Shown here piece by piece: positions 14,364-59,514 of a DNA stretch of 64,000 nucleotides. Location: sequence record PZ379074.1; one strand, written 5' to 3'. The DNA comes from a phage. The notes below the pieces were generated by a model. The model was not told the DNA's origin and did not search any database. It saw only the letters and a list, made by a program, of their open reading frames with translations. Position numbers and translations under genes: made by a program. Numbering within the stretch: position 1 is the first letter of the stretch; every line of letters begins with the position of its first letter.

Positions 14364-14599
14364 TGAATAAACGAACACCGTTTACGTGTTTTGAAGAATG
14401 GAATGTGTACAATGGGTCGCTTTATGCGGCCTTTTGTTGTTTGGGTCGTGTTTTGCGATGGAATAATTATGAGGTTGTGTTTTATTTATTAATTGTGCGG
14501 AAATATTTAGAAATATATTTCATAGGTCGTGTCTATTGGTCCGTGGTGTTTGTTAGGACTTATCTATGGATTGAAATTTTAGTGTCGTGAAACGTGGTG

Positions 14600-15060
14600 T
14601 TTGAACACATTTGATACGCGTAAAATACGGCTAAAAATTAAGCGTATCATGGCTGCAGGCCGCGCCGTTACTGAGTTCCTATTTTCAAAAGTGGTACACC
14701 CTTACGGATGATACGTCATGGTTTTTTATCCGTATCAGTGTACAGCCCTTGCCGCGCCTGGCCTGTACATTAATCTTACGGATGATACGGATAAAACTGG
14801 GCACCATTATATATATAATTTGAAAAATTAATTAACTCCATTTTAAAAACATTTAAATTATTTTTTTCATATCCTCATACTTATGTTAATTTATATATTT
14901 AACGTATCATCCGTAAGATATAAGTAAAAACAAAGACTTGCGGCAATACGGATGATACGTTATGATACGCTTCGACCAGCCAGCAGCGGCTAAGTCATTG
15001 ATTTGCATAACAAGCAGCGAAAGGGATGGATTTCTTTTATCCGTATCAAACAGTACACCA
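14600..15060. repeat. Iteron-like locus A: inverted and direct copies of CGGATGATACG around an AT-rich core
   Basis: CTTACGGATGATACG at 14701 and 14775; TTATCCGTATCA at 14727 and 15037; inverse copy at 14902; ACGGATGATACGTTATGATACG at 14948; AT-rich core 14808-14900; TACGCGTA at 14614. Confidence 0.6.
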
Positions 15061-15198
15061 CGCACCACGGTCCGTTATCCATTCAGCACTATGATTTGTG
15101 TACGTTTATAGCCATAATGAACATCAATCTGCACTTGAATATAATGTCCATCCATTGTATAATTCACACTATTAATTTGCACTATGGGATTTTGCACT

Positions 15199-15672
15199 AT
15201 GAGTCAAGATTATGTAGCGATGCCTGAAGACTTTGAAGACCCGCGATTTGCAGAGCACAATCAGGCTTTATTCGATGAGTTCATTGACCTTGTTATTCAG
15301 GGCCATGACATGCGCGCAGCTTTTGCACTAGTATTTGGAATGGAAGTTGCAACGGATAACTACACTGGCCAGCGAATCCTTTGCGCGCAACGCAATCCAT
15401 ACTACAAGATGCGCTTCAAAAAGCGTATGGAAGAGATGCCACTCAAGGATTTGTGGAGCGTAAAAGGTGCAATTCACAATTTGGTCAAGCTTGTGCGTGA
15501 TCCAGAAGTCGCGGCGTCAGCCAAACTTAATGCTATTCGTGAACTGAATATCATCTACGGCATCACGATGATTGATGAAAACGGCAATAGTAAAATGGGC
15601 CGTTCCATGGACGATTTCTACAAGGATTTTGGAGAGGCGGCCAAAGAAGGTGAGCAATTCTCCCGCCACTAG
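15199..15672 (+). CDS. Hypothetical protein (157 aa); ATG embedded in an 11-mer copy
   Basis: ORF MSQDYVAMPEDFEDPRF...; no obvious SD; start codon is the ATG of TTTGCACTATG. Confidence 0.45.
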   Translation: MSQDYVAMPEDFEDPRFAEHNQALFDEFIDLVIQGHDMRAAFALVFGMEVATDNYTGQRILCAQRNPYYKMRFKKRMEEMPLKDLWSVKGAIHNLVKLVRDPEVAASAKLNAIRELNIIYGITMIDENGNSKMGRSMDDFYKDFGEAAKEGEQFSRH

Positions 15673-15691
15673 CCAATTTGCACTATAAAAC

Positions 15692-15725
15692 GGCCCTAGA
15701 ACACATTTTCTCCACTTCTAGGGCC
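15692..15725. other. Perfect 10-bp inverted repeat (GGCCCTAGAA / TTCTAGGGCC) with 14-nt loop
   Basis: Read directly; immediately after the 15199..15672 stop and an 11-mer copy; no clear U-tract on plus strand. Confidence 0.4.
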
Positions 15726-16100
15726 ATCGGTAATACGACGGGGAAGGTTACAACCATAAACGCGTTATAAAGTGTATTATTATAAGTCATCTTTTAGTCA
15801 CTTTCCGTAACAATTTACGACCTTCAACCGTCCAATCGAACGACTCCACCAGCAGATTTGCACTATAACCTAAGACTACCCGACCTTTCTCGTTATCGAC
15901 CCGCCAGCAAGTCTCGAATAGCATCTTATTTGCACTATTAACTATCGCCGCAACTCGCGTAGGATAAGCGCAATTTGCACTATGGTCATAAAGGGATAAG
16001 GTGCGACCACTTCCGATGGACAACGTAGCGATGAGAATGAGCGTATTCATAAGCCACCAATTTGCACTATGAAAAGCGACCCCGAAGGGCCGCCATTCTA

Positions 16101-16727
16101 TTAGATAATCTGGAAGGTGTAGGACTTGTTGCCGAACTCAAAGTTCAAGCGCCCAGCTTCCTTAAGCTTCATGCGGAAGCGAATGTGTTTGCTATCCGGC
16201 AAGCCCAGCGCGGCGAACGCTACGCGGACCGATTTGAACTCGCCTACACCCTCGACCATGACACCGTTACGGGTGAGACGCTTTTGCGCCACTTCCTTAT
16301 TATCCCAGCTTTTTGCAATACCTTCGCTATTCGAACGGCGATGGGAAGGAGTTCCATTTTGCACTACGCAATTTGCACTATCGTTTAAACCGCTCTTAAC
16401 GAAGGCTTCATATTCTTCGTCGGTCATCGCGTCGAGTTCTTCCTGGGTCGGCTCAGCCTTTTTAACGACCGCACGCGCCTTATGCGTTTTTACATCGCTG
16501 GACACTTCCTCGCGCGGCTTCGCGTCGGGAATGGGCGATTCGTTGGACGGCTCATCGAGCGCGTTTAAGGACTCGATTAACGCGATTACGCGAGTCTCGG
16601 CGGTCCGGCGGTCCGCGAATTTCTTAATCGGCTTCGAACCGGAATTTGCATTATAAAATGCAACGAGGTCGGCGGTCTTAGTTGCGATAACGTCGCCGCT
16701 AGTAGAAAAGCGATTTAAGCTAACCAT
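16101..16727 (-). CDS. Hypothetical protein; 5-prime half CpG-rich, 3-prime half of ordinary composition
   Basis: 208-aa ORF with minus-strand RBS AGGAG in context CTAGGAGTTTATTATG; contains two 11-mer copies at the composition change. Confidence 0.55.
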   Translation of the reverse strand: MVSLNRFSTSGDVIATKTADLVAFYNANSGSKPIKKFADRRTAETRVIALIESLNALDEPSNESPIPDAKPREEVSSDVKTHKARAVVKKAEPTQEELDAMTDEEYEAFVKSGLNDSANCVVQNGTPSHRRSNSEGIAKSWDNKEVAQKRLTRNGVMVEGVGEFKSVRVAFAALGLPDSKHIRFRMKLKEAGRLNFEFGNKSYTFQII

Positions 16728-16807
16728 AATAAACTCCTATTTGTTAGGGCGCTAGGCGCGAAAGAATTTTATTAAAGCGCCGCGCACGACGCTCTAAAAA
16801 TCCTCTC

Positions 16808-17122
16808 TTACTCTTCGTCGTCTTCGATTAATTCGAGGGCGAAGGCGTAAGCTTTGCTATCGTAATTAACTAAAACGGCGAGTTCGAACTCGTTAATAAA
16901 CGCCGTTTTACCGCATAAATTTAATTCCGCATCGACTTCGAAGAATCCGTTTTCGTCGCGCTCTAAGCGAGAAGCAGCGAGTTGCTCGATTACCGTCGCG
17001 TCGTTAATTTCTTCGCCTAAGCGAACGCCGGAGAATTTAGCGAGAATTTCGCCGTAAGTAAGCGTAACGCCCTGGACTTCGGCGGTTGCGTTTTCGAGGG
17101 TAAAGCGGGTAACGATAGCCAT
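16808..17122 (-). CDS. Small acidic hypothetical protein (104 aa, C-terminus ELIEDDEE)
   Basis: RBS context CTAGGAGTTTATTATG; CpG-rich codon usage. Confidence 0.55.
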   Translation of the reverse strand: MAIVTRFTLENATAEVQGVTLTYGEILAKFSGVRLGEEINDATVIEQLAASRLERDENGFFEVDAELNLCGKTAFINEFELAVLVNYDSKAYAFALELIEDDEE

Positions 17123-17346
17123 AATAAACTCCTAGTTGGGAGAGGCGTTAACGACCTATTCGTTAACTCATCCCGTCCCGATATGAGTACATTATAATAT
17201 AGTGTAGAAAAAAGTAAAGCACTTTTTCGATAAAAATGCGATAAATTATTTTATCTTTTTTCTTTACTTCTTCGTACACTCGCGTATACTTGTTTATATC
17301 GAGACGGGCGATGTCCCTTTCTTCTACTAGCATCGGGAGCTTTATT
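17123..17346. promoter_or_regulatory. Divergent intergenic control region with repeated TTTATATCGAGA(C/G)GGG elements and TATAAT-like hexamer
   Basis: CTTTACTTCTTCGTACACT plus TTTATATCGAGA repeated at 17255-17300 and 17660-17700; inverted copies of AAAGTAAAGCACTTTTTCG at 17212 and 17648. Confidence 0.4.
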
Positions 17347-17649
17347 ATGACTACTTTAATCTCTTCCATCCTTACTTACGACGAAGACCGCTTAACCGTT
17401 CGCTCTCTTATCGCCGCCGTTAACGCGGAACTAGAATCTAGCGCCATTAAGGTCCGCGCGGTCGCCTTCATCGGCCTTTCCTTCGACGATATGAAGTATG
17501 CCGAACGTAGCGCTATCCGCTTCGCGAAGACCGACGACGAAGCCGTTACCCTTATCGAGACGGTTACGCCGCGCGACGAAGCGTTAATTATCGTCGAGTA
17601 TATCGACGTAGAAGGCGATAAGGCTTATAAATATTTTATCGCAGAATAA
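17347..17649 (+). CDS. Small acidic hypothetical protein (100 aa)
   Basis: ATG at 17347 after GGGAGCTTTATT; CpG-rich. Confidence 0.55.
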   Translation: MTTLISSILTYDEDRLTVRSLIAAVNAELESSAIKVRAVAFIGLSFDDMKYAERSAIRFAKTDDEAVTLIETVTPRDEALIIVEYIDVEGDKAYKYFIAE

Positions 17650-17756
17650 CGAAAAAGTGCTTTACTTCTTCGTACACTAAGACTATAATGTTTTATATCG
17701 AGAGGGGATGAGGTAGCGAATAGGTCGCTACCCTCCCGACCAACTAGGAGATTATT

Positions 17757-18047
17757 ATGATTACTTTAGCCGCTATCCGTAACGCTCGCGCCGAAACTTC
17801 CGAAAACTCTAACGTATTTGGCGAAAAACTTAAAAACGTTTATCTCTTTAACGTAGATGCGACTATCGAGGAGCTTCATAGTCCTATCGATTTTAGCGAA
17901 TTTACGGAACTCGAAGAGGAAGATATTTCTACTTTCCGCGTTACTATCGAAGGCAAGGTTTATTTTGCTACGGAGTTCGGCGGCGAATATCTCGCGGTAT
18001 CCGAAGGCGAAGGCCGTTACTCTTTCTTTAAAATCGTCTCCTTATAA
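17757..18047 (+). CDS. Small acidic hypothetical protein (96 aa)
   Basis: RBS context CTAGGAGATTATTATG preceded by hairpin GTAGCGAATAGGTCGCTAC. Confidence 0.55.
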   Translation: MITLAAIRNARAETSENSNVFGEKLKNVYLFNVDATIEELHSPIDFSEFTELEEEDISTFRVTIEGKVYFATEFGGEYLAVSEGEGRYSFFKIVSL

Positions 18048-18049
18048 TA

Positions 18050-18758
18050 CCCTTCCGTTACTAATAGGCCGCGCTTAGTCGCGGCTTTTCTTCGTCCCTA
18101 TCCCGATGCGCGTCTACGCGAAAACTCCTTTATCCTTCCCTTCGTCGTCGCATAATCTTCTTCGAGATGCTCCTTAGTTCGCATAACAGGTATTACGTTA
18201 AATGGAGAACATCGCGTAAGTCCTTGTTTTATATAGACACCTATATCGGACCGTTAGGGCGGGTCGCGTAAGTCGTTGTTTTATAAAGGCGCAAAACTTT
18301 CCCTTCGTTCCGAACTAAAACGAGGAATATGCCGACCCTTCGTCCGAAAATAGTATGCATGCGAAATTACATGCATCTAGAATAATCCCCACCGATATTA
18401 TCCTACACGCAATCATTCGCTTTCGAATCATTATGCTTCATATTATTATGCATCGAATCATTCTCTTTCGAATTGTAACGCTGGAAACTGTAACGGCGAT
18501 TGATTATTGCGTTCGTGTGGTTTTTAGGGCATGGGTCTTTTGGTGCGTTTTGCTACTTGATGAAATTTGCGGTACACTAATCAAAATACGACACATTTGG
18601 TCCACTAACTTTTCAAAGAAAAAGTCCTAGACAGTACCGTACTATTTTGCACCCACAGGAAATTTGCAGTACACTCCTGCGCGGCAGGCAAAATAAAGGG
18701 CCGCACTAAGCGACCCACTAAGCGACCCACGATTCACGGTTAAAGCAACATCCACCCA
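18050..18758. repeat. About 700 bp without a convincing ORF, rich in short direct repeats
   Basis: CGCGTAAGTCNTTGTTTTATA x2 (18216, 18267); CGAATCATT x3 (18420-18470); TGTAACG x2; ATTTGC(A/G)GTACACT x2 (18563, 18662); ACTAAGCGACCC x2 (18705-18730). Confidence 0.4.
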
Positions 18759-30520: not shown

Positions 30521-30658
30521 ATGCAAAAGATTATTCAGTCACGTTACGTTAAAGTGCGAAATATTAATTGCAACTCTTTGCTTTCTTGGAAATGGGCTGT
30601 TTACGACTCGATGCTGATTGGCGTTTTAGTTGCTGGAGTGCTTTTTAATATTCACTGA
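30521..30658 (+). CDS. Small hydrophobic peptide (45 aa)
   Basis: RBS AGAGGAAG; C-terminal MLIGVLVAGVLF; below ORF-track cutoff. Confidence 0.35.
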   Translation: MQKIIQSRYVKVRNINCNSLLSWKWAVYDSMLIGVLVAGVLFNIH

Positions 30659-30689
30659 ATCGCCTGGCAATGGATTGCCGCAGGATTTT

Positions 30690-30975
30690 ACGCGTATAAT
30701 GACGTATCATCCGTATCAAGTAAGTAGTTGTTTTCAAAAGAATCTTACGGATGATACGGATGATACGCGTTGCCGCGATACTTTATAAGAGTTTATAAAA
30801 AAATAAAATTATATATCTAATTTAATTTTATTTTTTTATAAACTCTTATATATGAAAAGTATCCGTATCATCCGTATCATCCGTAGCACACCAGTGATAG
30901 CGCGGCTTATACACCGATACGGATAAAAATACACCTCATTTTATCCGTATCATCCGTATCACACTAATTAAGGCG
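30690..30975. repeat. Iteron-like locus B: tandem and inverted CGGATGATACG copies flanking a 60-bp AT-rich palindrome
   Basis: CTTACGGATGATACGGATGATACG at 30744; ATCCGTATCATCCGTATCATCCG at 30861; TTATCCGTATCATCCGTATCA at 30951; AT palindrome 30783-30850; TACGCGTA at 30689. Confidence 0.6.
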
Positions 30976-31070
30976 CGGCTATATCGGTTGTTATACATAT
31001 TCAAACCATAATTATTGTTTGCCTAAGTTTTTTTCATTAGATATAATACACAATACTTATTTGAGGGTGG

Positions 31071-32489
31071 ATGCGAATGCAAACGGCACGCGAAATTGAC
31101 AAAAATGGATTCTTGACGATTGTGGGTTGTCCCATTTCGTCATTTGGCATTTTTGATTATTCTGCAGGTCAGGTTGGACTTGATGGTGATCCGAATCGCA
31201 TCGTAAAAGTTTATCGCCCAGAGTCAGCGGTGAAAGACCCCGAAGCGATAGATTCATTCAAAAATATCCCTTTCATCGACAATCACGAAATGCTTTCTGG
31301 ATTCGAAGGTGATGAGGATAACACAGCACCCGAAGAGTATGGCGTTGATGGCGTTCTAACTGGCAATGTTTATTATGACAAGCCATGGATGCGCGGCGAC
31401 CTTAAAGTTTTTAGCCGTCGTCTGAAGAAAGCCATCGATTCTGGAAAGGTTGACTTGTCTTTGGGCTATGACTGTGAATTCATCATACAGTCTGGAGAGT
31501 TTGACGGGCAGCCGTATGAAGTGGTACAGACAACTCTTCGCGGCAACCACATTGCTCTCGTGGACGTTGGTCGAGTACCAGGTGCACGGGTGCTGGATGG
31601 TCGTTGCTTTGACCATCTTTGTTTGACGACTGTAACACCATCCAACGAGGATTTAGACATGCCAAAACCGTTAAAAGGTAAAGCGCGTGATAATGCTGTT
31701 GAACAGCTGAAATCACTGATCCCTGCGCTCGAACAATTTCTGAATGAAGAGAGCACCGAAGCTGCTCATCAGGACGAAGTTGAAGTGAAAGCAGAAGAGA
31801 AGGATTCAACCGAAGAACGTGAAGAAGTGATGGTTGATCCAGAAGTTAAAGCAGAAGCTGAAGAGACTCCAGAAGGTGAAGAGAAGTTTGAAGTTGAAAC
31901 TGAATCTCACGCTGGCGGCGAGCTTCCGCAACTGATCAGCCAAATCGAAGCACTTATTGCAAAACTGAAAGGTGGCGCGGTAGGTGATGAAGAAGAAGTT
32001 GAAGCCGAAGTCAAAGACGAAGAAGTTGAAGTCAAGGCTGAAGATGTATCACCTTGCGACAAAGCTGAAGATGTGGTTAGCGGCCTGCAAAACAGCAACG
32101 TAAAGGGGGCTTCGGTCGAAAAAGATGACAAACCGACAAAAGCGGCGAAAGCGTCGCCAGGTCCAGCAAAAGGGGAACACTCAATGGCATCTGATTCAGC
32201 AGTTGCTGCTTTCTACGCTGATTCTGCTCGTAAGAATAGCCTCTACCAGCGCCTGTCTAAAGTTGTTGGTGCCTTTGATCATGCAACTATGGACTCCAAG
32301 TCCGTAGCGAAATATGGCGCTAAAAAGTTAGGCTTGAAGTGCGTTGATGGTGCTGAGTTTGACGTGGTGGATAATTATCTGCGCGGCGTTGAACACGGTC
32401 AAAAACAGCGTGTAGTCGCAAAACAAAAGGCCGCTGCGGATTCTGCAGCAACTGACGAAGCATTTGAAGCTTGGTTGAAAGGGGAATAA
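31071..32489 (+). CDS. Putative prohead protease/scaffolding protein with acidic EVxVKAE repeats
   Basis: 472-aa ORF upstream of the capsid gene; central Glu-rich repeats (EVEVKAEEK, EVKAEAEE, EVEAEVKDEEVEVKAED). Confidence 0.65.
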   Translation: MRMQTAREIDKNGFLTIVGCPISSFGIFDYSAGQVGLDGDPNRIVKVYRPESAVKDPEAIDSFKNIPFIDNHEMLSGFEGDEDNTAPEEYGVDGVLTGNVYYDKPWMRGDLKVFSRRLKKAIDSGKVDLSLGYDCEFIIQSGEFDGQPYEVVQTTLRGNHIALVDVGRVPGARVLDGRCFDHLCLTTVTPSNEDLDMPKPLKGKARDNAVEQLKSLIPALEQFLNEESTEAAHQDEVEVKAEEKDSTEEREEVMVDPEVKAEAEETPEGEEKFEVETESHAGGELPQLISQIEALIAKLKGGAVGDEEEVEAEVKDEEVEVKAEDVSPCDKAEDVVSGLQNSNVKGASVEKDDKPTKAAKASPGPAKGEHSMASDSAVAAFYADSARKNSLYQRLSKVVGAFDHATMDSKSVAKYGAKKLGLKCVDGAEFDVVDNYLRGVEHGQKQRVVAKQKAAADSAATDEAFEAWLKGE

Positions 32490-32491
32490 AT

Positions 32492-33109
32492 ATGACTTTC
32501 CAAACTAGTGTAGGCCGTCAATATACAACTGGCTTTCCTGGCGACATCGTTCGCGACGGCCCACAGCGTGGGAAGCCAGGCCGAATTGCCAACGCCAACG
32601 AAGGCGCAAACGTAAACGCCATCAGCCGTGTGTTTGGTTTTAAAGCTGACGTATCTTTAATGGGTACTGGCCAAACCAAAACCTTGGGAGCGCAGGACTT
32701 TGAAGTTGAACTGGGCGGCACCAATTACTACGGCATCCTTGGCAACAGCAAGCGTTACGCGCTGTATGGCAACTCTACTGGTCCTTTGGGTGCCAGCATG
32801 GTTCTGCCTCAATATAGCGAAGGCGAGTTTTACGATATGTGCACAGGCCTCGTAGTTGAAGTATTCAACCCTGGCACCAGTCCGCAGACGCTGAACTACG
32901 GCGACCTGCTTGCTTATGTACCTAAAGGCATTTCCGGCGCGAACAACCCGAATAACTTGCCTATCGGTGCAATTATCGCCTATACTGGCTCACTGCCAAC
33001 TGGCATGGTTGCCATCCCAGGCGGTATTGTGATTGACCCGACTGCTATTGCCCTTTCCGGCCCAAGCGTCCAGTCTTCCACTTATACCATTGTACAATTG
33101 ACTCGTTAA
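32492..33109 (+). CDS. Hypothetical head protein
   Basis: ATG at 32492 after AAAGGGGA; between scaffold and capsid genes. Confidence 0.55.
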   Translation: MTFQTSVGRQYTTGFPGDIVRDGPQRGKPGRIANANEGANVNAISRVFGFKADVSLMGTGQTKTLGAQDFEVELGGTNYYGILGNSKRYALYGNSTGPLGASMVLPQYSEGEFYDMCTGLVVEVFNPGTSPQTLNYGDLLAYVPKGISGANNPNNLPIGAIIAYTGSLPTGMVAIPGGIVIDPTAIALSGPSVQSSTYTIVQLTR

Positions 33110-33123
33110 TAGGCAGGTGAATA

Positions 33124-34263
33124 ATGACTCGCATTAGCCAAACACACTCTCGCCTCCCAGCGAGCAAGGTGCGCCCTTTTGATATGCAATCCGTGACCGA
33201 CGCGGCTGTTTCCCAGCTTGCTCGTATCGGTATTGTGTTTGATTCCGCGATTGTGCGTGATCAGATTGAGCACTTAAACCGTGCAGGCGCTTTCCGCGTA
33301 GGTGACGCCGCGTTTACTGCACCGCAGACCACGCCATCAATCCCGACTCCGCTGCAGTTCCTGCAACAGTGGTTGCCTGGCTTCGTCAAAATCATGACCG
33401 CTGCTCGTAAAATTGACGAGCTGGTTGGTATTGACACCGTTGGTCAGTGGGAAGATGCAGAAATCGTTCAGGGCATCGTTGAACCAGCTGGCACCGCAGT
33501 TGAATATGGTGATTTCACCGCTATTCCTCTGGCAAGCTGGAACGTAAACTTTGAGCGACGCTCCATCGTTCGCGGTGAAATGGGCATGGCAGTCGGCATG
33601 CTGGAAGAAGGTCGCGCGTCTGCGATGCGTCTGAACTCCGCAGAGACCAAGCGCCAGCAGGCTGCTGTATCTCTGGAAATCATGCGTAACGCAATCGGCT
33701 TCTATGGCTGGTACAACGGGAACAACCGCACGTTCGGCTTCCTGAATGATCCAAACCTGCCAGCGGCGATGACTTCAAACACCACTTCCGGCTGGGCTAC
33801 TGCGACCTTCCAACAGGTGACTGCAGACATCCGTTTGATGGTTCGTCAAATCCGTGTCAACTCTCAGGACCAGATTGATCCAGAGAAGGTTGATATGACT
33901 CTGGCGCTGCCGACCAACTCTATTGATTGGCTGTCAAACACCACCGACTTCGGTATTTCTGTACGTGACTGGATCACCCAAACTTATCCGAAGATGAAGA
34001 TCAAATCTGCACCGGAACTCAACGGCGCACTTGGCAGTGACCCGACTTTCCTGAACGTGGCATATCTGTACGCTGATCACATCGATTCTTCAATTGATGG
34101 CTCAAGCGACGATGGTTCCGTATTCAGCCAGCTGGTTCAGACTAAGTTCATGACTCTGGGCGTTGAGAAACGCGCTAAGAGCTACGTTGAAGACTACGCA
34201 AACGCAACAGCAGGCGTTCTGCTCAAGCGTCCTTTCGCAGTCGTCCGTATGACTGGAATCTAA
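33124..34263 (+). CDS. Major capsid protein (candidate)
   Basis: 379-aa ORF, RBS CAGGTGA; followed by stable hairpin; position in head module. Confidence 0.7.
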
Positions 34264-53597: not shown

Positions 53598-54560
53598 TTA
53601 AAAATACTCCATATCGGTAATATCACGGAAGCATTTATACAAAGCAGAGCGCGGCACATCAACAATGCCAAAGTTAAAGAATTTATACGTTAGATATTTA
53701 TCGCGATAGTTCTCGCGATTCTCCCAAAGCATTTTTCTCTCTGCCATAGGCATTGAACCAGCGGATACGCGGAAAGGAATCATTTCACCTTGCTCATCCA
53801 CATATTTTGGATTGACGACTACGAATGAGCCAAGGTATCCTTTCGCAACTAAACCTTCAGCCTCTTTTGAACGCTTGGTGCGACCCAATTCGTCAATGAA
53901 TGCTTCGTTGTTGTTCTCCATCATCTCAACGAAGTCTATGATCAGTCCTTCTTCATCGGTCCACGGCTTGTCCTTCCACACATCACGTGACTTTGGCGTC
54001 GCGCGGCCATGCTTGTATTTGCCCGTCCAAGACTTGCCATACAAGCCTTCATAGCCAAGCTGGTCTGCTTCGATTTGCATCGCCGCGTACTGTTCCATAT
54101 TTTCGATGTTTCGATATTCGAGAGCGCGAAGGAATGGGCGTCGACCATGGTTGATGAGGTGCTGATTGACTTCAGCAACTCTAGCGCGATATTTTGCATA
54201 ACGCTTTTCAAAAGGCAAATCAGGGTTGCTGAAGTCATCAAACACCCACCATGTAAAGTTAGTGATTGCATCAGTGTTCATGCATGCAGTATAGGCCTGT
54301 TGCATGACGTTCTTGTCGTTCGGATTACCGTCAATTAGCTCTCCATCAAGTCCGTGAATTAGTTCACCCAAAAAGAGGAACTCTTTTTTGATTTGAACGT
54401 TGCGCAACGGCATGCCGGAAGTGCCCATTGGCAAGTTGTCATACGCCATTGCGCGTATGCCATCGACCTTGAATGACAGTCCGCAAGGCAGCGGAACGTC
54501 CTCGCCGCGCTCGATAATCTGCTTACGTTGGCAACCCTTCATTGGTTTTAATGCTGTCAT
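53598..54560 (-). CDS. ATP-dependent DNA ligase
   Basis: 320-aa ORF; adenylation motif KVDGIR (KxDG), LDGELI and EGLVAK nucleotidyltransferase motifs. Confidence 0.8.
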   Translation of the reverse strand: MTALKPMKGCQRKQIIERGEDVPLPCGLSFKVDGIRAMAYDNLPMGTSGMPLRNVQIKKEFLFLGELIHGLDGELIDGNPNDKNVMQQAYTACMNTDAITNFTWWVFDDFSNPDLPFEKRYAKYRARVAEVNQHLINHGRRPFLRALEYRNIENMEQYAAMQIEADQLGYEGLYGKSWTGKYKHGRATPKSRDVWKDKPWTDEEGLIIDFVEMMENNNEAFIDELGRTKRSKEAEGLVAKGYLGSFVVVNPKYVDEQGEMIPFRVSAGSMPMAERKMLWENRENYRDKYLTYKFFNFGIVDVPRSALYKCFRDITDMEYF

Positions 54561-59095: not shown

Positions 59096-59514
59096 GACAA
59101 TTCCTCTAAATACTTGATGATGTGATGAATAGTTCCCTTCACGATTATCTCACGTTGAACGTCTGCAGTATTATAACGCTTTAATTCAATAGAAGGGTGG
59201 ACTAAATAAAACATCTTCTCAGAATCAACTTTAAGTAAAACGAATGATGGGTATCGCCAATCATTCCAAGACGAAAGAAAGCTGCATTGGCCTTTCTCAA
59301 ATGCATTTCTGAAAGGTGCAGTGGTGGCCCTTGCAGGCCACGATTCAAAGAACTTCATTTCAAGCCAAAAGCCGCGCCCTTTCCGGTTGGTGCCGATTAC
59401 GTCCGGCACACCATCACCCGTCATTGATTCGATTCTTTGAAGCTTCAAGATTGATTCTGAATGCTTCTTCAAAGGCACGAATATGTATTTCTGTTCACGG
59501 TTATTTGTTGCCAT
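59092..59514 (-). CDS. VRR-NUC (PD-(D/E)xK) nuclease
   Basis: Start at 59514 after AGGTG; GVPDVIG ... WLEMKF; coupled to SNF2 helicase. Confidence 0.6.
   Translation of the reverse strand: MATNNREQKYIFVPLKKHSESILKLQRIESMTGDGVPDVIGTNRKGRGFWLEMKFFESWPARATTAPFRNAFEKGQCSFLSSWNDWRYPSFVLLKVDSEKMFYLVHPSIELKRYNTADVQREIIVKGTIHHIIKYLEELS

Follow-up and report, generated by a model that had tools for sequence, protein, structure and literature searches.

Why should a phage genome keep a non-coding segment full of short repeats directly in front of its head genes? The question is raised by a locus in the stretch of phage DNA analysed here (sequence record PZ379074.1, 64,000 nucleotides, hereafter the window, whose coordinates are used throughout). 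The phage is a Wifcevirus, an E. coli myovirus, and the region around the locus is 98.5-99% identical to the Escherichia/Shigella phages WFH, FEC19, ECML-117 and Mansfield. Wifcevirus genomes measure 66-72 kb and belong to myoviruses that are distant kin of the Pseudomonas Pbunavirus (PB1-like) phages. The locus, named locus B, is a 412-bp intergenic gap at 30659-31070, which extends from a 45-aa open reading frame (ORF) to the head maturation protease gene according to the ORF list and the annotation of Mansfield and WFH. The original prediction had described it as iteron-like and paralogous to another repeat locus (locus A) about 16 kb away, and had offered twin origins, operator sites for one regulator or recombination hot spots as possible explanations. 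Judged from sequence comparison, the packaging/terminus site is represented by locus A (intergenic, 14591-15183), and locus B is its paralogue inside the genome, with the same repeat arrays and the same A/T-rich centre.

In regard to the repeats themselves, each locus consists of arrays of a 9-bp unit, GATACGGAT (or GATGATACG when read in the other register), placed with dyad symmetry around an A/T-rich centre. The word CGGATGATACG is present in ten exact copies in the 64 kb, all of them in the two loci (four in locus A, six in locus B), and the eleventh match carries a mismatch; the chance expectation is 0.79, and 11 matches were reached in 0 of 100 shuffles. Likewise, 17 of the 22 window copies of the minimal core TGATACG lie inside loci A and B. 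Copies of CGGATGATACG in locus B occupy positions 30703-30713 (-), 30748-30758 (+), 30757-30767 (+), 30864-30874 (-), 30873-30883 (-) and 30946-30956 (-), with tandem copies of the unit spaced in a 9-bp register.

Locus B begins with an outer left site at 30703-30718 (-), made of two 9-bp units (CGTATCATCCGTATCA), followed by the left arm of the core dyad at 30744-30767 (+; CTTACGGATGATACGGATGATACG, 2.5 units), the A/T-rich centre at 30784-30850 with an A7 tract and a T7 tract, and the right arm at 30861-30885 (-; ATCCGTATCATCCGTATCATCCGTA, about three units). Within the core dyad, 22 nt of the left arm (30746-30767) are 100% complementary to 30864-30885. Further to the right, a single variant unit is present at 30916-30928 (+; GATACGGATAAAA) and a distal right array at 30939-30961 (-; TTATCCGTATCATCCGTATCA), the latter forming together with 30870-30907 a 38-nt direct repeat whose end is GCGCGGCT. 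Tandem units in both orientations had been announced by the original prediction, which was right about 30744-30769 and 30861-30883, placed the distal array about 10 nt away from its real position (at 30951-30970), and overlooked the outer left site and the single variant unit.

In the window phage, the centre of locus B is a near-perfect palindrome with 31-nt arms that are 97% complementary, and the whole dyad amounts to a near-perfect palindrome of 140 nt; as single-stranded DNA, positions 30740-30890 fold with -51 kcal/mol (z=-16). The left half of the central palindrome (30784-30814) was found in the window phage only and equals the reverse complement of the right half, the five other Wifcevirus genomes having GGAATTCAAATAAATTAATTTAAAATT in its place and a centre that reads GGAATTCAAATAAATTAATTTAAAATTATATATCTAATTTAATTTTATTTTTTTATAAACTC. 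This rewriting of the left half looks like the product of a template switch or of conversion within the locus. Apart from this palindrome half, the sequence of locus B is nearly invariant across the six Wifcevirus genomes. A scan of locus B against Rfam gave only sub-threshold matches to microRNA hairpins, which are artefacts of the palindrome, and the scan of locus A gave no match. Boxes of the form GCGGC(A/T) also accompany the arrays, at 30676, 30771, 30902 and 30975 in locus B and at 14750, 14940 and 14986 in locus A. All seven are oriented in the same manner, TGCCGC to the left of the centres and GCGGC(A/T) to the right, and such boxes recur at the equivalent loci in all genera examined. 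They are common genome-wide (162 copies, with 18 copies of GCGCGGCT), and nothing is built on them here.

The paralogy claimed for the two loci extends beyond the shared units. In a local pairwise alignment, loci A and B match over 152 columns with 68% identity, spanning the left arm, the A/T centre and the right arm, and the score of 50 stands against 23.5 +/- 2.7 for dinucleotide shuffles (z ~10) and 24 for the highest-scoring of 41 further window tiles. The same comparison within WFH gives a score of 106 over 155 columns. Two flanking words pointed out by the original prediction were located in both loci as well: the window has no copies of TACGCGTA other than those at 14615-14622 and 30689-30696, and TTTTCAAAAG stands ahead of either left arm, at 14682-14691 in A and at 30731-30740 in B, and has a single further, unrelated copy at 54205. 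A third copy of the module was found neither in the window nor in the ~4-7 kb outside it, the latter checked in WFH.

Furthermore, the two loci carry traces of sequence exchange. The left unique half of locus A (14590-14773) exists among Wifcevirus genomes as two unrelated alleles whose breakpoint falls at a CTTACGG motif. Where the allele is of the WFH type, its left arm contains 46 nt that are almost identical to the left arm of locus B. It follows that A and B exchange sequence, which points to gene conversion between them. To this extent the idea of a recombination hot spot is borne out, and only partly so.

The identity of locus A gives this paralogy its meaning. Its left arm is located at 14775-14796 (+; CTTACGGATGATACGGATAAAA), its inverted arms are CTTACGGATGATACG (14775-14789) and CGTATCATCCGTAAG (14903-14917, -), and other units are present at 14703-14715 (+), 14724-14737 (-), 14947-14959 (+), 14963-14969 (+) and 15035-15048 (-). 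The left physical end of the genome, where the direct terminal repeat (DTR) begins, maps from relatives to 14839|14840, in the A/T-rich centre between the inverted arms; virion DNA of close relatives starts with ATTTT. In WFH, which has a terminal repeat of ~3.7 kb (Korf 2019, PMC6563267), the first base of the record corresponds to window position 14840 and the final 26 bases map to 18515-18540. The record of Mansfield, whose terminus was determined by PhageTerm (PMC6753283), starts on the same base as that of WFH, and the 3,533-bp DTR determined by PhageTerm in Ro157lw (PMC6454146) starts at a position mapping to ~14840. The terminus is thus placed in the window phage by homology, from three independent determinations in relatives that are 94-99% identical. 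The DTR accordingly covers 14840-18540 (3701 bp, in single copy in the window), as given by the end of the WFH record and the WFH set of repeated genes, and its first gene, at 15184-15672 (+), encodes the small terminase subunit (TerS). This protein is 96% identical to WFH gp001, which matches the TerS of phage E217 (PDB 7UXE) with E=1.6e-32, and its orthologue is annotated as terminase small subunit in Mansfield. Since the genome end falls in its centre and the TerS gene lies directly next to it, locus A is, by homology, the packaging/terminus site. Locus B, at a distance of 15.5 kb from the TerS gene and ~5.5 kb from the gene of the large subunit (TerL), is neither within nor adjacent to the TerS gene and is for that reason classed as a paralogue of the terminase recognition site and not as the site. 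The terminal repeat and the TerS annotation are already known for Wifcevirus; for the repeat arrays, their dyad arrangement at the cut and the internal paralogue, no description was found in the searchable papers on Wifcevirus, Pbunavirus and terminases, the coverage of which is incomplete.

Several other features of this region were noted. The RefSeq version of WFH TerS (WFH 202-834) has 210 aa owing to an N-terminal extension that reaches into locus A (region 15040-15183 of the window), its match to the solved E217 TerS begins at residue 55, and a stop codon in the window leaves an ORF of 162 aa from the ATG at 15184, so that the start of WFH TerS is probably over-extended. The right DTR boundary (18540|18541; region 18380-18680) carries repeats of another kind, namely CGAATCATT twice (18424, 18454) and TGTAACG twice (18474, 18489) within the DTR, and AAATTTGC(G/A)GTACACT twice just beyond it (~18565, ~18660). 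As no right-end repeat resembles GATACGGAT, the two DTR ends are probably recognised differently. Outer inverted elements belong to locus A and are absent from B (GTGGTGTTTG twice on the left, 14543-14603, and CACCACGCACCAC on the right, 15056-15068), and a C/A-rich CACCAC tract between the terminus and TerS is also found in Kyle, Spe5P4 and Pbunavirus; it may be the determinant of cutting specific to A.

The pairing of the two loci is not a peculiarity of one genome. When the sequence before TerS was compared with that before the protease gene of the same genome, in 13 genomes including the window, the similarity was significant in 11 (z 10-57): the window phage (z 9.8) and WFC (z 14) among Wifcevirus, Pantoea phage Kyle (z 36), two Pbunavirus genomes (z 18-19), the Serratia phages MyoSmar (z 12.6) and MTx (z 12.3), Salmonella phage PCSE1 (z 34) and three uncultivated contigs (z 48-57). 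Values at the level of chance were obtained for Xanthomonas phage XcP1 (z 0.3) and UViG_3300044693_000229 (z -1.5). Every relative keeps a gap of 370-520 bp before the protease gene. Serratia phage Spe5P4 had at one point been considered to be without a second locus, which was a false negative of the exact-motif search, as alignment of its TerS-upstream and pre-protease regions showed the paralogy.

What is kept in these lineages is the arrangement, and the motif changes. Instead of the Wifcevirus unit GATACGGAT, Kyle has GGTTATT and ATATCCGAA, Spe5P4 has AAAAGTAA and TTACTTTTG, Pbunavirus has GGTAATT(T/A)GG, and PCSE1 has AATATCGG and CCGTTATAT, in each case as inverted arrays around a centre. 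In whole genomes, these motifs are again confined to the lineage's own A and B, with nine of nine copies of GGTTATTT in Kyle and eight of ten copies of AAAAGTAA in Spe5P4. When distant lineages are set against each other, no A-A, B-B or A-B score rises above background (19-32), apart from two cases. In the closely related pair MyoSmar/MTx, orthologues (274 and 248) exceed paralogues (50-69), and Pbunavirus and UViG_3300014205_17 give a modest A-A score of 49. Similarity of A to B within a genome, combined with background scores across lineages, is the signature of slow concerted evolution, which might proceed by gene conversion, by co-selection for one binding protein, or by both. Related to this, the poorly conserved part of TerS is its N-terminal DNA-binding part, which fits the turnover of motifs.

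The position of the cut is likewise repeated in other lineages. In Kyle, the A/T centre of locus A contains the start (69566) of an exact 3,603-bp DTR, and the context of this cut is almost unchanged in locus B of the same phage (AAAAAAATGATAAATTC|ACTTAAAAAAAATACAG against AAAAAAATAATAAATTGACTACAAAAAAATAGAG). For MyoSmar, PhageTerm gave a repeat of 3,559 bp (PMC6753285), and both its boundary and the start of the MTx record are within the centre of the Serratia locus A. The records of the Pbunavirus phages Ab27 and Pa193 begin just ahead of the A/T stretch, ~600 bp upstream of TerS, where fixed read ends have been reported for Ab27. A putative pac site at 59,376, likewise ~600 bp upstream of TerS, is reported for Pbunavirus JG024, and in SCUT-S1 the predicted pac is in an AT-rich region where the authors speculated on an origin.

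Taken together, these observations suggest the following model. The arrays of locus A would position a terminus-recognition protein on either side of the cut, in analogy to the pac sites of P1 and SPP1; this protein would most probably be the small terminase, acting by itself or together with a partner. As locus B carries the same units and the same module, the same protein would be expected to assemble on it too, and its most likely role would be that of a second docking site, a role that is favoured because no study reports virion ends at B. Two forms of such docking can be envisaged. Locus B could pair with A, similar to the synapsis of DNA by twin rings of TerS that has been proposed for T4, or its occupancy could link the level of terminase to the expression of the head genes. 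We thus tentatively favour, at a little below an even chance, the view that B binds the same terminus-recognition protein as A, probably terminase, and serves as an auxiliary or regulatory site and not as a major virion end.

Several points weigh against this view. We infer the binding to the A and B arrays, and the packaging role of B is entirely of this kind; the termini, moreover, come from relatives and not from reads of the window phage. The TerS of E217 showed no appreciable DNA binding in vitro (reviewed in PMC9611059); in tblastn matches to Pbunavirus records, E217 TerS is 41% identical. A terminus at B is not reported in any PhageTerm study, and B is far from both terminase genes. In XcP1 and UViG_3300044693_000229 the pre-protease gap is kept and has no similarity to the phage's own TerS-upstream region, so the pairing, lost or never gained there, is dispensable in some lineages. 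Finally, both loci precede a strong predicted sigma-70-like promoter, and a transcriptional role explains this position equally well.

A possible partner of TerS was also noted within the DTR. A conserved 208-aa protein (phrog_4730) is encoded at 16101-16727 (-), ~430 bp past TerS and convergent with it, and a sequence search of the PDB gave no significant match for it. Kyle, Pbunavirus and XcP1 also have minus-strand ORFs of similar size past TerS, the likeness being one of size and position only. The protein is a candidate for a partner in terminus recognition or for an early host-takeover protein.

The transcriptional alternative is the most probable of the rivals. According to it, a phage transcription factor would bind the 9-bp units as shared operator or enhancer arrays and co-regulate the promoters of TerS and of the protease-scaffold-capsid genes, with the genome end falling into the same spacer by coincidence. 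The surroundings of locus B suit such a role. The 45-aa ORF upstream (30521-30658) is the last of a block of portal and minor head protein genes, and the protease gene (31071-32489, +) opens the head/structural block, followed by the genes of a scaffold-like protein (32471-33109) and the major capsid protein (33124-34263), so that locus B lies directly before the protease/scaffold and capsid genes, as originally described. A sigma-70-like promoter is predicted at 31019-31047 (+; TTGCCT-17-TATAAT, 10/12 consensus matches), 23 bp before the protease ATG, and another before TerS at 15135-15163 (TTGAAT-17-TATAAT). Serratia, Pantoea and Pseudomonas relatives have the similar form TTGnnn-17-TATAAT(ACAC) ahead of their protease genes, and comparable promoters are predicted before both TerS and protease in Kyle, Spe5P4 and Pbunavirus. 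Each locus is therefore situated between co-directional operons and directly before a near-consensus predicted promoter, and the downstream genes are in both cases morphogenesis genes. In Pbunavirus 14-1, some promoters require phage factors (PMC10914365), which speaks for operators too.

However, at least three lineages have the cut at the point around which the arrays are symmetric, something that a pure operator model would not lead one to expect, and the homology of A and B goes beyond the motifs to include the A/T centre and the cut-site context. The units do not overlap the hexamers of the predicted promoters, and the last unit ends at unequal distances from the -35 box, 58 bp in locus B and 70-87 bp in locus A. 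The motif is present at only two of the many late-gene regions, and no recognisable regulator gene adjoins either locus; a search of ten neighbouring proteins for DNA-binding families (PHROG and Pfam) gave no functional match, which is a weak test, as they are mostly ORFans. Of the original proposal that both loci are sites of one regulator, the part concerning a shared DNA-binding factor is a fair one, given the confinement of the motif to A and B and of the lineage motifs in Kyle and Spe5P4, and the operator part is retained as a live rival only, which we consider unlikely.

It is also conceivable that B is itself cut, as a minor site of packaging initiation or of nicking by terminase, with ends that are rare or processed away and therefore missed by standard calling. 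The cut-site context preserved in the B locus of Kyle agrees with this, and repeated double-strand breaks at both loci would account for the gene conversion between them. The Pbunavirus reports on termini contradict each other, and the record of Pbunavirus E215 (NC_042080) begins inside the B equivalent, positions 1-329 preceding the protease gene, 14 nt away from the point that corresponds by paralogy to the fixed read end in A at which the Ab27 and Pa193 records start. However, the E215 paper gives no reason for this start, which is undocumented and concerns one record of ~300. Likewise, a metagenomic Wifcevirus contig of 68,520 bp (IMGVR_UViG_3300045988_152943) is broken exactly at B, but its ends overlap by ~87 nt across the palindrome, and breaks at a 140-nt palindrome are the usual behaviour of assemblers; an assembler break being the simplest explanation, this contig was rejected as a physical end. 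Moreover, PhageTerm or coverage analyses of WFC/WFH, Mansfield, Ro157lw and MyoSmar reported only the two DTR boundaries and no terminus at B, and the CTCC that directly precedes the cut in A is absent from B in Wifcevirus. Cutting at B thus appears improbable.

Twin replication origins, in which the units would act as iterons for a phage initiator and the A/T centre as an unwinding element, and in which replication from A would also duplicate the terminal repeat, have the origin-like combination of repeated sites and an A/T-rich centre in their favour, as well as the speculation of the SCUT-S1 authors about the A/T-rich pac region. No replication initiator gene was found next to A or B, where the neighbours are TerS, protease and small ORFs without a match to a replication family. 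The GC skew does not switch at B, being positive on either side; the cumulative skew has a local maximum near A (~15 kb), at the place where the genes change orientation, and in Pbunavirus the skew reaches its minima in the block of replication genes, a long way from either locus. The units, tandem and inverted 9-bp repeats with at most three in a row beside an A/T-rich centre, do not look like phased direct iterons. Lacking an adjacent initiator and a skew switch at B, and with arrays that are inverted around the cleavage point, the iteron or twin-origin proposal proved the weakest of the three offered originally, and we regard it as very unlikely. Least probable of all is that B has no function and resembles A only through gene conversion between recombination-prone, palindrome-rich spacers, since the clear exchange between A and B (the WFH left arm and the two A alleles with a breakpoint at the motif) and the left half of the window's B centre, turned into the complement of its right half, have to be set against a pairing that persists in lineages with proteins 30-55% identical and orthologous spacers diverged beyond recognition, against the near-invariance of B in Wifcevirus, and against a non-coding gap of 370-520 bp kept in compact genomes.

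The favoured docking model can be compared with several known systems. At the pac sites of P1 and SPP1 (the latter organised as pacL-pacC-pacR), short repeated boxes flank the cut, and the site lies within the small terminase gene or beside it. Locus A is similar to them in having repeats on both sides of the cut, a bendable A/T-rich centre and a position directly before TerS, and B shares the arrays and the centre. Unlike them, these phages have a fixed 3.7-kb DTR without a headful series (the Pbunavirus relatives appear to be headful), 9-bp units in inverted arrays, an extra internal copy 16 kb away and a TerS binding that is only putative. In the T4 model of pac synapsis by twin rings, gp16 joins two homologous pac-like sequences (PMC10893049). 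Both systems have two dispersed homologous sequences per genome, one of them at the TerS gene, and traces of recombination between them. The T4 sites, however, are short, lie a few kb apart and were found via gene amplification, and T4 has no defined ends, whereas the Wifcevirus modules measure 150-260 bp, are 16 kb apart, include one that is the genome end, and are known from sequence only. With the long-DTR phages of the T5 type (a PhageTerm class), Wifcevirus shares a non-permuted genome and a repeat of 3.5-3.7 kb that holds small, early-looking genes.

For T5-type phages, we know of no described internal paralogue of the repeat boundary. The same short repeated motif combined with an A/T-rich segment at two dispersed loci is also a property of the two-locus iteron systems P4 ori/crr and SPP1 oriL/oriR, and this likeness speaks for twin origins; unlike in those systems, no initiator gene or skew signal is associated here, and one of the loci is a mapped DNA end by the terminase gene. 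In herpes simplex virus, the 'a' sequence is a cleavage and packaging signal present at the termini and in one inverted internal copy, and it drives the isomerisation of the genome. It resembles the present case as an internal copy of a terminal packaging signal that is preserved through recombination with the terminal copies. It differs in belonging to a eukaryotic virus, in being unrelated in sequence, and in its orientation, the phage copies being direct and without known isomers.

As for the wider meaning, how long-DTR phages recognise and cut their DNA is the problem to which these loci relate, and here the recognition module is legible from the sequence and has a conserved second copy. 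The A/B pair also represents a clean natural case of two cis-acting sites in concerted evolution with turnover of their motif. Furthermore, among the members of the group are the Pbunavirus phages with the widest use in Pseudomonas therapy, whose disputed packaging mode bears on the risk of transduction and on the rules for rebooting engineered genomes. A more far-reaching proposal, possible but doubtful, is that Wifcevirus, Kylevirus, Myosmarvirus, Pbunavirus and their uncultivated relatives form a myovirus family with two-site control of packaging, in which B would be a working partner of the terminus, synapsed with it by TerS rings or cut or nicked as a second entry. If true, such two-site control would link the production of capsids with genome packaging, and it could account for the conflicting reports on where Pbunavirus genomes end.

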